64,000 bases of DNA, taken from the NCBI RefSeq assembly GCF_003334815.1, contig NZ_QOWO01000006.1; one strand, 5' to 3'. Position 1 is the first letter of the stretch. Every line of letters begins with the position of its first letter. Below the pieces are notes generated by a model. That model was not told the DNA's origin and did no database searches. It was given only the letters and a program-made list of their open reading frames with translations. The translations under genes were made by a program, and so were the position numbers. The DNA comes from Escherichia coli (GTDB lineage Bacteria; Pseudomonadota; Gammaproteobacteria; Enterobacterales; Enterobacteriaceae). This document shows positions 5,350-41,573 of this stretch, piece after piece.

Positions 5350-6673
5350 ACCTGCGCATTTATTATTGGTCGATGACGATCCGGGATTGCTGAAACTGCT
5401 TGGCCTGCGCCTGACCAGCGAAGGCTACAGTGTGGTCACGGCGGAAAGTGGCGCTGAAGGATTACGGGTACTGAATCGCGAAAAAGTAGATTTAGTCATC
5501 AGCGACCTGCGGATGGATGAAATGGACGGTATGCAGCTGTTTGCTGAAATCCAGAAAGTGCAGCCGGGAATGCCGGTAATTATTCTTACCGCGCATGGTT
5601 CTATTCCCGATGCCGTTGCTGCAACACAGCAGGGCGTTTTTAGTTTCCTCACCAAGCCTGTCGACAAAGACGCGCTATATCAGGCAATTGACGATGCGCT
5701 GGAGCAATCCGCGCCAGCCACCGATGAACGCTGGCGCGAGGCAATTGTCACCCGCAGCCCGCTGATGCTGCGTTTGCTGGAACAGGCGCGGCTGGTGGCG
5801 CAATCAGACGTCAGCGTTTTGATTAACGGTCAGAGCGGCACCGGGAAAGAGATTTTCGCCCAGGCTATCCACAACGCCAGCCCGCGCAACAGCAAACCAT
5901 TTATTGCTATTAACTGTGGCGCATTGCCCGAGCAATTGCTGGAGTCGGAGCTGTTTGGTCATGCGCGTGGCGCGTTTACTGGCGCTGTCAGCAATCGCGA
6001 AGGTTTATTCCAGGCGGCGGAAGGCGGAACGCTATTTCTCGATGAAATTGGCGATATGCCTGCGCCGTTACAGGTCAAACTGCTGCGCGTGTTGCAGGAG
6101 CGTAAAGTGCGCCCGCTGGGCAGTAACCGCGATATTGATATCAATGTGCGGATTATTTCTGCCACTCACCGTGATCTGCCAAAAGCGATGGCGCGCGGGG
6201 AATTCCGCGAAGATCTCTATTACCGCCTCAACGTTGTCAGCCTGAAAATTCCGGCACTGGCGGAGCGCACAGAAGACATTCCGCTACTGGCAAATCACCT
6301 GTTGCGCCAGGCGGCAGAGCGACATAAACCGTTTGTCCGCGCGTTCTCTACCGATGCGATGAAACGCCTGATGACCGCGAGCTGGCCGGGTAATGTGCGC
6401 CAGTTGGTCAACGTGATTGAACAGTGCGTGGCGCTGACCTCATCTCCGGTGATTAGTGATGCGCTGGTGGAGCAGGCGCTGGAGGGTGAAAATACGGCGC
6501 TGCCAACCTTTGTTGAGGCACGTAATCAGTTTGAACTCAACTATTTGCGTAAGCTGCTGCAAATCACCAAAGGCAACGTCACCCACGCGGCGAGAATGGC
6601 GGGGCGCAACCGGACAGAATTTTATAAACTGCTTTCCCGACACGAGCTGGATGCAAACGATTTCAAGGAATGA
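5339..6673 (+). CDS. glrR: sigma-54-dependent response regulator GlrR (YfhA/QseF), 444 aa
   Basis: Track ORF 5237..6673; start [15 protein letters not shown] overlaps qseG stop by 11 nt; receiver domain, AAA+ sigma-54 activator domain (GESGTGKE, GAFTGA motifs), C-terminal HTH. Confidence 0.93.
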
Positions 6674-37708: not shown

Positions 37709-38992
37709 ATGACAGAAGCGATGAAGATTACCCTCTCTACCCAACCTGCCGACGCGCGCTGGGGAGAAAAAGCAACTTACAGCATTAATAATGACGGCAT
37801 TACCCTGCATTTGAACGGGGCAGACGATCTGGGGCTGATCCAGCGTGCGGCGCGCAAGATTGACGGTCTGGGCATCAAGCATGTTCAGTTAAGCGGTGAA
37901 GGCTGGGATGCGGATCGCTGCTGGGCATTCTGGCAAGGTTACAAAGCCCCGAAAGGCACGCGTAAAGTGGTGTGGCCGGATCTGGACGATGCCCAGCGCC
38001 AGGAACTGGATAACCGCCTAATGATCATCGACTGGGTGCGTGACACCATCAACGCACCGGCAGAAGAATTGGGACCATCGCAACTGGCACAGCGTGCTGT
38101 TGATCTGATCAGCAACGTCGCGGGCGATCGTGTGACTTATCGGATCACCAAAGGCGAAGATCTGCGTGAGCAAGGTTATATGGGGCTGCACACAGTCGGA
38201 CGCGGTTCAGAACGTTCTCCGGTATTGCTGGCGCTGGATTACAACCCAACTGGCGATAAAGAAGCGCCAGTGTACGCGTGCCTGGTAGGTAAAGGTATCA
38301 CTTTTGACTCCGGCGGCTACAGCATCAAACAGACTGCGTTTATGGACTCGATGAAGTCGGACATGGGCGGCGCGGCAACGGTTACCGGGGCGCTGGCATT
38401 TGCCATTACGCGCGGACTGAACAAGCGCGTGAAGCTGTTCCTCTGCTGTGCGGATAACCTGATTAGCGGCAATGCGTTCAAGCTGGGCGATATCATCACC
38501 TATCGCAACGGTAAAAAAGTTGAAGTGATGAACACTGATGCCGAAGGGCGTCTGGTGCTTGCCGATGGTCTGATTGATGCCAGTGCGCAGAAACCGGAAA
38601 TGATCATTGATGCGGCGACCCTCACCGGGGCGGCGAAAACTGCGCTGGGTAATGATTATCACGCGCTGTTCAGTTTTGACGATGCGCTGGCCGGTCGCTT
38701 GCTGGCGAGTGCCGCGCAGGAGAACGAACCGTTCTGGCGTCTGCCGCTGGCGGAGTTCCACCGCAGCCAGCTGCCGTCTAACTTTGCCGAACTGAACAAT
38801 ACCGGAAGCGCGGCGTATCCGGCAGGCGCGAGCACGGCGGCGGGCTTCCTGTCGCACTTTGTTGAGAACTATCAGCAAGGCTGGCTGCATATCGACTGCT
38901 CGGCGACTTACCGTAAAGCGCCGGTTGAACAGTGGTCTGCGGGCGCTACGGGACTTGGTGTGCGCACGATAGCTAATCTGTTAACGGCGTAA
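37709..38992 (+). CDS. pepB: peptidase B (M17 leucyl aminopeptidase family), 427 aa
   Basis: Track ORF 37622..38992; start [10 protein letters not shown]; M17 signature NTDAEGRL. Confidence 0.93.
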
Positions 38993-39000
38993 ACTAATAT

Positions 39001-39100
<100 letters not shown>

Positions 39101-39133: not shown

Positions 39134-39910
39134 ATGTCCGAAACAAAAAACGAACTTGAAGACCTGCTGGAAAAAGCAGCAACTGAACCGGCGCACCGCC
39201 CGGCCTTTTTCCGTACTCTACTGGAATCCACCGTCTGGGTGCCTGGTACGGCGGCGCAGGGCGAGGCTGTGGTTGAAGATAGCGCGCTTGATTTACAGCA
39301 CTGGGAAAAAGAAGACGGCACCAGCGTCATTCCTTTTTTCACCTCGTTAGAAGCACTTCAACAGGCGGTTGAAGACGAACAGGCATTTGTCGTAATGCCC
39401 GTTCGCACGCTGTTTGAGATGACACTTGGCGAAACGCTCTTCCTTAATGCCAAACTGCCAACCGGTAAAGAATTTATGCCGCGTGAAATCAGTTTGTTGA
39501 TTGGTGAAGAGGGAAATCCGCTGAGCAGCCAGGAAATCCTGGAAGGCGGTGAATCGCTGATATTATCGGAAGTCGCAGAGCCGCCAGCACAAATGATTGA
39601 TTCACTCACCACCTTATTTAAAACCATTAAGCCGGTGAAGCGTGCTTTTATTTGTTCAATTAAAGAGAACGAAGAGGCACAGCCTAATTTACTTATTGGC
39701 ATTGAAGCCGATGGTGATATCGAAGAAATTATTCAGGCGACGGGAAGTGTAGCGACCGATACATTACCTGGCGATGAACCAATCGATATTTGTCAGGTGA
39801 AAAAAGGGGAAAAAGGAATTAGCCACTTTATTACCGAACATATTGCGCCATTCTATGAACGTCGCTGGGGTGGTTTTTTGCGTGACTTTAAACAGAATCG
39901 GATAATCTAA
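39134..39910 (+). CDS. sseB: SseB (enhancer of serine sensitivity) protein, about 258 aa
   Basis: Track ORF 39125..39910; start MSETKNELEDLLEKAA (alternative start 39125). Confidence 0.88.
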   Translation: MSETKNELEDLLEKAATEPAHRPAFFRTLLESTVWVPGTAAQGEAVVEDSALDLQHWEKEDGTSVIPFFTSLEALQQAVEDEQAFVVMPVRTLFEMTLGETLFLNAKLPTGKEFMPREISLLIGEEGNPLSSQEILEGGESLILSEVAEPPAQMIDSLTTLFKTIKPVKRAFICSIKENEEAQPNLLIGIEADGDIEEIIQATGSVATDTLPGDEPIDICQVKKGEKGISHFITEHIAPFYERRWGGFLRDFKQNRII

Positions 39911-39911
39911 A

Positions 39912-40215
39912 ATATGCCGCCCAAAGGGCGGCATTCGGGCTTACTTGCTGCTCTGAAGGTTGTTAACCACCAGTAAATTGTCGCCGGAGAGACTCCGGTT
40001 ATTATTTACCTCGGTTAACAGCGCACCAGAAACAATAAGTACGATACAAAAGCACCGTATCTTCATTGTGCGGTCCATGCGAAGACCGCATCACGACAGC
40101 ACCACTGGCGATATTGCCGCGATAGCAAGCGCTGTGAAACACCTGCATTTACGGCCACGGAACATCCTTTCCTAAAGCCAGCGCCCGTTTGCGAGACGGC
40201 GGAAAGGGCCGCAGT
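39912..40215 (-). ncRNA. ryfA: candidate RyfA-like transcript (about 300 nt), possibly a small-protein mRNA
   Basis: Minus-strand TATTAT -10-like hexamer at 40218-40223; about 300 nt downstream the minus-strand terminator hairpin at 39913-39937; contains a 24-codon ORF (40091-40165) with AGGAAAGG RBS; boundaries and strand are inferred, not proven. Confidence 0.35.
39913..39937. terminator. hairpin at sseB 3' end; T-tract is on the minus-strand side (better terminator for a minus-strand transcript)
   Basis: TGCCGCCC-AAA-GGGCGGCA; flanked by AAAATA on the + side so the minus-strand reading gives hairpin + UAUUUU. Confidence 0.55.
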
Positions 40216-40388
40216 GGATAATACACTAACAGAACAATAATAACTCTCTTTTGCTTGACAAAAAGAGAGTTACTGGCGAGTATTGTCTCCGCTGAGACGC
40301 GCTTGCATTACTACGGTAATACAACCTGCTGGAAAGGCCGCGAACCGGACCAGCAACAAAAAACCGCCTGATTTTGGCGGTTTTTTGT
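40198..40388 (+). repeat. paralogous unit 1: leader + TTGACA-centred palindrome + conserved block + intrinsic terminator (candidate ~100-nt sRNA gene on + strand)
   Basis: About 80% identical to 40520-40711; TTGACA at 40255-40260 inside perfect 11-bp inverted repeat (40242-40271); terminator AAAAAACCGCC-TGATTTT-GGCGGTTTTTT at 40357-40390. Confidence 0.6.
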
Positions 40389-40519
40389 TTTTTAAAGGAA
40401 AGTGAATTTACATGTTTAAGTAATATCTTTTACCGGTTAGAATTTTTAATTTTGAGCAGGATTTGTTTATATTTGTCTGAATTCGGACTAATAAGCCAGG
40501 TTATTTTATTACCGAACAC

Positions 40520-40711
40520 GGCGGAAAGGGCCGGTGTCGATAATACGCTAAATAAACAATAATTACTCTCTTTTGCTTGACAAAAAGAGAGTTACTGGTG
40601 AGTATTGTTTTGCTGTGAAGCACCTGCGTTGCTCATGTAACACAAGTCAACCTGCTGGAAAGGCCGCGAACCAGACTAGCAATAAAAAACCGCCAAATTC
40701 GGCGGTTTTTT
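40520..40711 (+). repeat. paralogous unit 2: same architecture as unit 1; its terminator also serves convergent sseA
   Basis: TTGACA at 40577-40582 inside 10-bp inverted repeat (40565-40592); conserved CTGCTGGAAAGGCCGCGAACC block; terminator AAAAAACCGCC-AAATTC-GGCGGTTTTTT at 40683-40713, 15 bp from sseA stop. Confidence 0.6.
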
Positions 40712-40727
40712 ATTGCCTGTAAAATAC

Positions 40728-41573
40728 TTATTTCACTGGCTCAACCGGTAAATCTGCCCGCGCGCCCCATTCACTCCATGCGCCGTCGTACAGTTTCACG
40801 TTTGGCACATCCAGCGTCGCGAGTGCTAACAAAACCACGGCTGCCGTTACACCAGAGCCGCAGCTGACGATAATTGGTTTGTCGTAGCTGACGCCGCGAC
40901 CAAAAAATATCGCATCCAGTTCATCGGTCGTTTTTAGTTCGCCTTCGCGCACCAGTTCCGTCCACGGAACATTCAGTGCTCCGGGAATATGTCCGCGACG
41001 TAAACCTGGGCGAGGTTCATCAACTTCTGCGTTAAAACGTGCAGCCGGGCGGGCATCAATAATTTGCGCCGTATTTTCATGGCTTGCCAATAATACATCG
41101 GTTACTTTCACCACGGCTTCAGGATTAAACGCGGCGTTAAACTCTCCTTCCGGCAGCTCTACTGCACCTTCTTCTAACAGCAGATCATCGCGCTGCCAGC
41201 CTGCAAGTCCACCCCCCAGAATCGACACTTTCTCTACACCAAAGGTGCGCAGCATCCACCATGCTCGTGGGGCTGAGAAAAGATTACCTTCGTCATAGAC
41301 AATCAGGTGCTTATCCTGGTTAACGCCTAATTCACGCATCGCCACGGCGAACGTTTCCGGGCGCGGCAGCATGTGCGGAAGCGGGGAAGTGTGATCAGAA
41401 AGCGCTTCGATATCAAAAAACACTGCGCCGGGAATATGTCCATTCAGATACTCCTGAGCAACGTTACGATCCTCCTGTCCAGGCGACGCCATGCGGGCAT
41501 CGATAATCTGAATTTCCGGGTCATCAATATGTTCGGCGAGCCAGTCGGCTCCTACAAACCATGTCGTGGACAT
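40728..41573 (-). CDS. sseA: 3-mercaptopyruvate sulfurtransferase (tandem rhodanese domains), 281 aa
   Basis: Track ORF 40728..41732; start MSTTWFVGADWL; active-site Cys in CGSGVTA. Confidence 0.93.
   Translation of the reverse strand: MSTTWFVGADWLAEHIDDPEIQIIDARMASPGQEDRNVAQEYLNGHIPGAVFFDIEALSDHTSPLPHMLPRPETFAVAMRELGVNQDKHLIVYDEGNLFSAPRAWWMLRTFGVEKVSILGGGLAGWQRDDLLLEEGAVELPEGEFNAAFNPEAVVKVTDVLLASHENTAQIIDARPAARFNAEVDEPRPGLRRGHIPGALNVPWTELVREGELKTTDELDAIFFGRGVSYDKPIIVSCGSGVTAAVVLLALATLDVPNVKLYDGAWSEWGARADLPVEPVK

Follow-up and report, generated by a model that had tools for sequence, protein, structure and literature searches.

The 817-bp spacer between sseB and sseA in the 64-kb stretch of Escherichia coli DNA analysed here (the window) is very probably the timP (ryfA)/timR type I toxin–antitoxin locus. 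The two repeats in this spacer would be two timR genes, each with a timP-type promoter lying back to back with it; unit 2 would be the cognate antitoxin gene and unit 1 a paralogue of another type, the whole being the product of array decay. The preliminary description had likened the spacer to divergent type I toxin–antitoxin loci such as timP/timR. We take it to be timP/timR itself, rather than merely something similar, because it carries the Rfam ryfA match, the TimP protein recognized by NCBIfam (NF040796) and PGAP, the timR annotated in MG1655 and the Term-seq 3′ ends.

In Salmonella, ryfA has been renamed timP and encodes a Sec-dependent small inner-membrane toxin that inhibits growth and whose translation is repressed by an sRNA (PMC7667032). 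The 5′ region of this sRNA, TimR (STnc2070), pairs with an 18-nt stretch of the timP 5′ UTR and blocks translation, as established with compensatory mutants and in vitro translation (PMC7667032), and TimR binding destabilizes a pseudoknot required for initiation (PMC11228461, PMC13000454). RyfA overexpression slows the growth of E. coli (PMC4606813), and timR deletion in APEC is reported to have little effect (PMC13188913). In the window, the minus strand would give rise to a 304-nt mRNA encoding the 41-amino-acid inner-membrane toxin TimP. The 5′ end of a divergent TimR of about 100 nt would pair with a loop in the timP 5′ UTR and destabilize the pseudoknot required for translation, so that toxin synthesis would be blocked. 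Toxicity of TimP and repression by TimR are expected for the E. coli alleles from the Salmonella work, and annotation and shared architecture suggest that our units are homologous to the experimentally studied Salmonella TimR.

The minus strand encodes the toxin TimP

The sseB stop at 39910 and the convergent sseA stop at 40728 bound the 817-bp gap, as initially described. The following features of the toxin gene lie at its sseB end.

39909–40212, minus strand: timP (ryfA) toxin mRNA, 304 nt (Rfam RF00126, 314.9 bits; MG1655 ryfA, b4440)
39941–40066, minus strand: TimP coding sequence, 41 amino acids, MKIRCFCIVLIVSGALLTEVNNNRSLSGDNLLVVNNLQSSK (NCBIfam NF040796; PGAP; MG1655 b4812)
39914–39934, no strand assigned: hairpin terminator used in common by sseB and timP, which converge on it (terminator scan, 9 pairs including 7 G–C; coincides with the 3′ end of the Rfam ryfA match)
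40218–40223, minus strand: timP promoter −10 box TATTAT (read from the sequence; putative transcription start at about 40212)
40131–40149, minus strand: predicted TimR-binding site in the timP 5′ UTR, mRNA nt 64–82 (type B, TGTTT, in the window; hypervariable among strains; 19-bp helix with the unit-2 RNA)

The RF00126 match is full length (model positions 1–296 of 296) and far above the gathering score of 80, which bears out the earlier proposal, made with a suggested Rfam check, of a RyfA of about 300 nt on this strand. The coding sequence scores 86.8 bits against the NF040796 toxic_TimP model (cut-off 45), and its ATG begins at mRNA nt 147, at about the +145 position of the TimP family. All E. 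coli types share the promoter's −10 region, GATAATAC, with Citrobacter and Superficieibacter, and Term-seq places the ryfA 3′ end of MG1655 at 2654157(+).

timP is present in all 5426 complete genomes that we compared, at 5603 places and at most three per genome. Among the matches listed for these genomes, a PGAP timP annotation lies under the match in every record, and the features found under the spacer match in PGAP-annotated genomes are timP only, together with sseB in some. The spacer itself is 100% identical in several complete genomes and 99.9% identical in K-12 records, and the full layout of the window recurs at ≥99% identity in 1516 of the complete genomes compared. The preliminary description had named strain-limited blocks and terminators as a finding that would count against it; in the 1516 genomes they are preserved.

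It had also stated that the gap holds no ORF of 60 codons or more with a ribosome-binding site. Two mechanical ORFs of at least 60 amino acids do exist, both with TTG starts (39960–40175, 71 amino acids; 40374–40562, 62 amino acids), and we rejected both because nothing supports them; the 41-amino-acid toxin ORF had been overlooked. So too had the strand to which the leader belongs, the difference between the seeds and the nature of the spacer as the scar of a lost timP.

Two divergent repeat units

Repeat units of about 195 bp lie at 40196–40390 (unit 1) and 40518–40716 (unit 2). They are 82.4% identical over 199 aligned columns (blastn, E=1.5e-52), in good agreement with the two units of about 190 bp and about 80% identity first reported. 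Identity is highest in two ungapped blocks, 40196–40286 against 40518–40608 (90%) and 40322–40385 against 40648–40711 (84%). The conserved block noted in each unit was recovered as the 21-nt CTGCTGGAAAGGCCGCGAACC, which occurs as two exact copies in the 64-kb window (40326 and 40652; 0.01 expected).

Two other elements of the units need to be read differently from before. The GGCGGAAAGGGCC motif is present in both, at 40198–40210 and 40520–40532, but it belongs to the opposite strand and is no part of the RNAs made from the plus strand: its reverse complement corresponds to about the first 13 nt of the timP mRNA, transcribed from the minus strand, in unit 1 and of a timP stub in unit 2. The terminator stems, at 40355–40389 and 40679–40716, do have the differing loops described (TGATTTT and AAATTC), but the difference follows position in the locus, internal or adjacent to sseA, and not the paralogue.

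The plus-strand elements are the following.

40255–40283, plus strand: unit-1 promoter, −35 TTGACA at 40255–40260, 17-nt spacer, −10 GAGTAT at 40278–40283 (read from the sequence; geometry as in annotated timR)
About 40291–40388, plus strand: unit-1 RNA, TimR paralogue of ~98 nt with type-A seed GCUGAGACGCGCUUGC (homology to annotated timR, from which the start is also placed)
40355–40389, no strand assigned: bidirectional intrinsic terminator for the plus-strand unit-1 RNA and the minus-strand IS128 (14-nt perfect arms; Term-seq 3′ end on the plus strand)
40577–40605, plus strand: unit-2 (timR) promoter, −35 TTGACA at 40577–40582, 17-nt spacer, −10 GAGTAT at 40600–40605 (read from the sequence)
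40612–40711, plus strand: timR, MG1655 b4811, 100 nt, type-B seed GCUGUGAAGCACCUGCGUU (converted from the MG1655 annotation 2653356–2653455(−))
40241–40272, no strand assigned: perfect 12-nt inverted repeat (arms 40241–40252 and 40261–40272) around the −35 box of the unit-1 TimR, within divergent promoter DNA that is not transcribed

MG1655 coordinates (x) were converted as window position = 40728 − (x − 2653339). Each unit takes the form of a divergent, non-overlapping sRNA gene of about 100 nt with a promoter and a terminator, for which we infer the start sites.

The TTGACA hexamer lies within a perfect inverted repeat in both units, as had been noticed, although the perfect arms around the unit-2 hexamer (40577–40582) extend to only 10 nt. 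One might suppose that the modules act mainly at the level of DNA, as regulatory cassettes in which the −35 palindrome is the operator for a factor that co-controls the divergent promoters: a perfect 12-nt repeat occupies the 78 bp of untranscribed DNA between the two starts, and it is duplicated in unit 2. We regard this as improbable. The palindrome occurs in allele types A and B and is absent from the type-C E. coli units and from Citrobacter and Superficieibacter, in spite of their conserved RNA parts, and no cognate factor is known. An operator would in any case be compatible with the reading of the units as RNA genes, and does not compete with it.

Unit 2 is the probable cognate antitoxin gene of the resident timP

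The curated MG1655 record contains ryfA (b4440), timP (b4812) and a single timR (b4811), which corresponds to unit 2. Its annotated +1 (40612) is the seventh nucleotide past the −10 box. Nucleotides 1–19 of the unit-2 RNA form 19 contiguous pairs with nt 64–82 of the resident timP mRNA, two of them G–U, a helix length reached in none of 1000 shuffles. The sRNA 5′ end thus has the approximately 18 nt of complementarity to the resident timP loop that characterizes a TimR, and the duplex energy is −42.5 kcal/mol. Because of this 19-pair helix, with which the curated timR annotation agrees, sequence pairing identifies unit 2, which lies 320 bp further from timP than unit 1, as the cognate antitoxin gene.

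The seed of unit 1, GCUGAGACGCGCUUGC, is the exact complement of a type-A timP ('CGCGT'), which is absent from the window. On the resident timP, 17 of 19 positions of unit 1 pair in register, with two mismatches and three G–U pairs; the longest contiguous helix is 11 bp, a length reached in 348 of 1000 shuffles. Complementarity of about 18 nt is therefore lacking between unit 1 and the resident timP and is present with the type-A timP of other strains; the corresponding energies are −35.5 and −46.1 kcal/mol. Pairing thus points to unit 1, the unit that adjoins timP, as a second TimR gene of a different specificity type. Because 17 of the 19 positions of the resident site can still pair, 'non-cognate' does not equate to 'inactive'.

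These values are duplex energies of 50-nt site and seed segments, combined with counts of contiguous helix against 1000 shuffles. RNAduplex applied to the full-length RNAs had returned meaningless whole-molecule duplexes and was replaced by the segments. Sequences suited to seed-specific probes are GCTGAGACGCGCTTGC for unit 1 and GCTGTGAAGCACCTGC for unit 2. The invariant stem-loop 2 loop (GCCGCGA) is complementary to timP nt 91–97, but we did not adopt this as a second TimR–timP contact, because complementarity over seven nucleotides can be expected by chance and offers no variation on which to test it.

Both units are predicted to form folded RNAs and have 3′ ends at their terminators

Both plus-strand RNAs are predicted to fold into an open 5′ seed, stem-loop 1, stem-loop 2 with the invariant loop AAAGGCCGCGAACC, and the terminator (fold z-scores −3.85 for unit 1 and −3.09 for unit 2). 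An alignment of 13 sequences gave the same consensus fold, with two pairs of stem-loop 1 changed from G–C to A–U on both sides. The set comprised E. coli alleles, E. whittamii, Citrobacter and Superficieibacter. As to the check for covariation that was proposed at the outset, the fold is shared within this set and two compensatory pairs are found, in stem-loop 1, but the changes may represent one event, because all five changed sequences are of type A.

We examined the published Term-seq tables for MG1655 (PMC7815308, supplementary file 1). A 3′ end at 2653679(−) converts to window position 40388, exactly at the unit-1 terminator, with scores of 107037 (LB, OD 0.4), 48011 (LB, OD 2.0) and 208460 (M63). 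Unit 2 has a 3′ end at 2653354(−), window position 40713, in M63 only, with a score of 34005. The 3′ end at its terminator implies that unit 1 is expressed in K-12, although this end could instead terminate a longer transcript from upstream. The prediction that the units encode expressed, structured plus-strand RNAs is supported by these ends at both terminators.

No feature is annotated over unit 1 in either the MG1655 record or the PGAP-annotated K-12 record; the Term-seq tables label its 3′ end merely as 'antisense to IS128'. Rfam has no family for TimR, and the plus-strand matches that were returned (rimP leader, ohsC, AgrB and RNAI) all score under their gathering thresholds and owe their scores to the terminators.

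Binding sites and seeds vary together across strains

We aligned 10 timP copies from seven E. coli loci. The timP mRNA is near-invariant save for nt 55–84, in which nearly all the variation sits and which fall into four types.

Type A: site ...GCAAGCGCGTCTCAGCG (CGCGT)
Type B: site ...GCAGGTGTTTCACAGCG (TGTTT), in K-12 and the window
Type C: site as in O157
Type D: site as in ST70

The seeds of the plus-strand units co-vary with these site types across E. coli types A–D, and the matching of site and seed also holds in E. whittamii, Citrobacter and Superficieibacter; the last two have one TimR-like unit each, with the conserved stem-loop 2 loop. Energies are −41 to −49 kcal/mol for the cognate pairs of other strains and −20 to −31 kcal/mol for non-cognate pairs on type-A and type-C sites.

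The arrangement of the partners differs among strains. ETEC4077 has a single-copy type-B timP with an adjoining TimR-B. ST70 shows the same pattern as the window, with a non-cognate TimR adjoining timP and the cognate one (type D) distal, and its distal TimR-D is interrupted by an IS200/IS605 insertion. Strains 2900 and PKF11 have timP-A and TimR-A together with a stand-alone orphan TimR-D.

A search of genome contigs with a timP pattern, which proved too strict, yielded six matches, four of them true timP loci; no Salmonella or Shigella locus was found among the six. The other two, in a Phycisphaeraceae MAG and in Branchiibius, lack Rfam ryfA and were set aside as chance matches.

The role of the timP-adjoining TimR

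What unit 1 does in a strain with a type-B timP can be read in two main ways. To the view that it is an orphan left by array decay, transcribed and targetless and accumulating because there is no partner mRNA to be consumed with, we assign slightly less than an even chance. The resident strain has no type-A timP, and a distal orphan TimR is seen elsewhere too, in the TimR-D beside timP-A of strains 2900 and PKF11. The Term-seq score of unit 1 exceeds that of the cognate timR, and a higher signal would fit an RNA without partner consumption. What an orphan reading leaves unaccounted for is the absence of any degenerative change in unit 1: its −35 box, seed and following stem-loop are identical to those of the type-A TimR of 442/2, GF4-3 and 23CRST027, where it occurs with a type-A timP, and its −10 box matches that of 442/2 and GF4-3.

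The intact promoter and terminator would suit a working second antitoxin, whereby TimR-A cross-represses the type-B timP through wobble-tolerant pairing and gives K-12 two layers of control. This is possible, but we consider it doubtful. The 17 of 19 pairs in register and the energy of −35.5 kcal/mol, against −20 to −31 kcal/mol for non-cognates on type-A and type-C sites, are in its favour, yet the longest helix is just 11 bp, which a third of shuffles (348/1000) attain. Experiments in related systems also speak against it: in S. dysenteriae, RyfB1 reduced RyfA1 but had no such effect on RyfA2, which is 95% identical (PMC5333039), and the M6 mutation in the TimR–timP pairing region of Salmonella abolished the rescue from toxicity (PMC7667032). 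The Term-seq signal of unit 1, which in each of the three conditions exceeds any other in the locus, and the ≥99% identity of the 817-bp layout in 1516 complete genomes would be expected of a gene in use, but the near-identity may reflect clonal relatedness rather than selection.

We tentatively propose, with less confidence than for the orphan reading by itself, that in K-12 and about 1500 relatives the timP-adjoining, unannotated TimR paralogue of the other type, the most abundant Term-seq end of the locus, is either a retained 'spare' antitoxin with some cross-reactivity or an immunity RNA that has been orphaned, and that orphan TimRs may decide which incoming timP alleles can be tolerated. 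Such a role would explain why two independent lineages (K-12, type B, and ST70, type D) have their matching TimR in the distal position, and deletion of the annotated timR in K-12 would then leave some TimR activity.

Probable array decay and the IS128 RNA

A second Rfam match and the probable remains of a second timP lie on the minus strand of the spacer.

40344–40552, minus strand: Rfam 'IS128 RNA' region (full-length match to RF00125 with 262.1 bits; gathering score 80)
40518–40545, minus strand: second-timP stub, −10 TATTAT at 40540–40545 plus mRNA nt 1 to ~17 (deletion junction 40517/40518)

Four pieces make up the IS128 sequence: the promoter stub of timP with mRNA nt 1–17, 14 nt left over from the 3′ end of sseB, an AT-rich core and the reversed unit-1 terminator. 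The sseB vestige, TTTATTACCGAACA at 40505–40518, repeats 39827–39840 and is joined to timP nt 17 to 1.

Tandem arrays in other strains show where such pieces could have come from. GF4-3 has three copies (types A-B-C), 23CRST027 two (A-C) and 2824 two (B-C), and each extra repeat has an 87-bp sseB 3′ pseudogene fragment at its start and the AT-rich IS128 core at its end. The window aligns with copies 1–2 of GF4-3 except for the absence of exactly 357 bp (L005 2405–2761), with the junction mapped to the base. The ancestor would have been a tandem array of repeats composed of sseB 3′ fragment, timP, timR and AT-rich core, from which a 357-bp deletion would have taken the body of the second timP, with its promoter stub remaining. 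One deletion cannot account for a type-B timP beside TimR-A, and a single-event model of the K-12 layout could not be fitted; two events or more are needed. The surviving timP presumably became type B through gene conversion or allelic replacement. We infer from these comparisons that the window is a decayed timP–timR array.

IS128 is best read, from its composition, as the scar of the deletion. The timP stub would transcribe leftwards to the bidirectional terminator at 40355–40389, and the product would be the 'IS128' RNA. That it is instead an independent functional small RNA gene (40344–40552, minus strand) seems to us quite unlikely. Such a gene would fit the full-length RF00125 match of 262 bits and the timP-type −10 box and upstream region that the stub retains, but the sequence is a patchwork of timP nt 1–17, sseB vestige, AT-rich core and reversed terminator. 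The core is present in just 2243 of 5426 genomes, and overexpression of IS128 left biofilm, motility and fimbriae unaffected (PMC4606813). The curated Term-seq lists contain no IS128 3′ end, while the opposite strand has a strong end at the unit-1 terminator. A 29-amino-acid ORF inside IS128 was considered as a coding candidate and rejected because it is not hydrophobic.

The window contains the full IS128 model sequence, and neither IS128 nor C0614 conveys what the sequence is; expression at the unit-1 terminator comes from the strand opposite IS128. The predicted C0614 is given in the Term-seq tables as lying 141 nt downstream of the unit-1 3′ end.

Relation to known loci

The timP/timR locus, its variable region and its sibling copies have already been published, and it is textbook material for the small-RNA field; our additions are annotation refinements within a known system and open no new kind of biology. 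In the literature searched, we did not find described the second TimR of K-12, expressed and with another seed type, the position of this second TimR, and not the cognate gene, as the neighbour of timP, or IS128 as a deletion scar.

The locus of Salmonella Typhimurium resembles the window in its sseA–sseB neighbourhood, its 300-nt RF00126 mRNA, its NF040796 toxin with a Sec signal, and its sRNA of about 100 nt, which is divergent and non-overlapping and pairs by its 5′ end with a 5′ UTR loop about 65–80 nt before the start codon. The Salmonella locus contains a single timP and a single timR, and STM2534 separates timP from sseA, whereas the window has one timP, two timR with different seeds, and the IS128 scar.

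S. dysenteriae has tandem ryfA1 and ryfA2, each with a divergent RyfB of about 100 nt, and the RyfA 'variable region', which overlaps the RyfB pairing site, exists in four versions, TGTTT, CGCGT, CACCC and CCCCC (PMC5333039). RyfB corresponds to TimR, and the versions include our types B, A and C together with one other variant. The Shigella locus retains two intact toxin mRNAs, with each RyfB beside its own partner, whereas the window has lost the second toxin gene and has a non-matching sRNA next to timP.

Deletion or probing of timR in K-12-type strains requires that the match of seed type and site be known, and the seed and site types are likewise needed to read RyfA phenotypes across UPEC, APEC and Shigella alleles. 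Together with the decaying arrays, these types offer a compact natural system for the diversification of antitoxin specificity.

Other type I loci duplicated on the chromosome, zorO–orzO/zorP–orzP and ibs–sib, likewise have antitoxins specific to each copy. Their paralogous toxin/sRNA pairs are tandem or dispersed, and which toxin an antitoxin represses depends on a few nucleotides of the seed. Sib RNAs overlap their toxin genes fully in antisense, and the Zor/Orz pairs stay complete. In contrast to both, the window has one broken pair, and the partners are no longer neighbours.

Sequence features of the TimR promoter and the TimR–timP interface

The −35 box of TimR is bracketed by a perfect 12-nt inverted repeat (TAACTCTCTTTT / AAAAGAGAGTTA), which lies between the divergent start sites, in a stretch that is not transcribed, and has a counterpart in unit 2:

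40241-40272, inverted repeat around the TimR −35 box
40565-40592, corresponding inverted repeat of unit 2 (perfect arms of 10 nt)

The repeat, which might serve as an operator, is found in units of types A and B but not in those of type C or in other genera.

We also found two further complementarities between TimR and timP. The invariant GCCGCGA loop of TimR stem-loop 2 is complementary to a UCGCGGC motif of timP, and timP nt 6-12 are complementary to GGAAAGG in TimR. Both matches are 7-mers, a length expected by chance, and because neither varies they offer nothing that can be tested by variation.

40334-40340, GCCGCGA loop of TimR stem-loop 2
40116-40122, timP UCGCGGC (timP nt 91-97; stem-loop 3, 5' arm)

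The published MG1655 3'-end tables (Term-seq) contain a weak internal 3' end in ryfA at nt 86 (window 40127, MG1655 2653940; score 857), recorded only in LB at an OD of 0.4. This position is the 3' base of the stem-loop bearing the TimR site, and the predicted TimR duplex ends 4 nt before it. The internal end could reflect either an exonuclease stop or cleavage related to the duplex.

TimR-D genes at other loci

A fourth type of timP site, type D (...GCAAGTGTATCTCGTCG), is found in E. coli O7:H15 ST70 (locus L007), where it adjoins a non-matching TimR-B-like gene. The cognate TimR-D gene is distal and is split between stem-loop 2 and the terminator by an IS200/IS605 tnpA, so that this strain may be without an intact cognate antitoxin. 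At two other loci, L003 and L017, TimR-D stands alone after the IS128 core, lacking both the timP promoter stub and the stem-loop 1 segment. The sole timP of these strains is type A, and TimR-D is therefore an orphan antitoxin, built differently from the one in the window.

L007 1512-2980, timP-D/TimR locus
L003 1588-1748, stand-alone TimR-D gene
L017 1788-1948, stand-alone TimR-D gene

The degenerate timP pattern also matched a Phycisphaeraceae MAG (L011, 577-601) and a Branchiibius genome (L013, 2383-2407). An Rfam search detects ryfA at neither locus, and we therefore rejected these as chance matches in GC-rich DNA.

Legacy and sub-threshold predictions

The pepB-sseB gap contains a REP-like palindrome (38987-39031) that matches Rfam naRNA4 on both strands below threshold (40.3 and 23.1 bits; gathering score 59.5).

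The Term-seq tables also list the old predicted sRNA C0614, which they put 141 nt downstream from where the unit-1 RNA ends; there it covers the promoter region of unit 2:

~40529 onward (MG1655 ~2653538), window plus strand, MG1655 minus strand, C0614

C0614 and IS128 are legacy predictions that are now accounted for by the timR genes.
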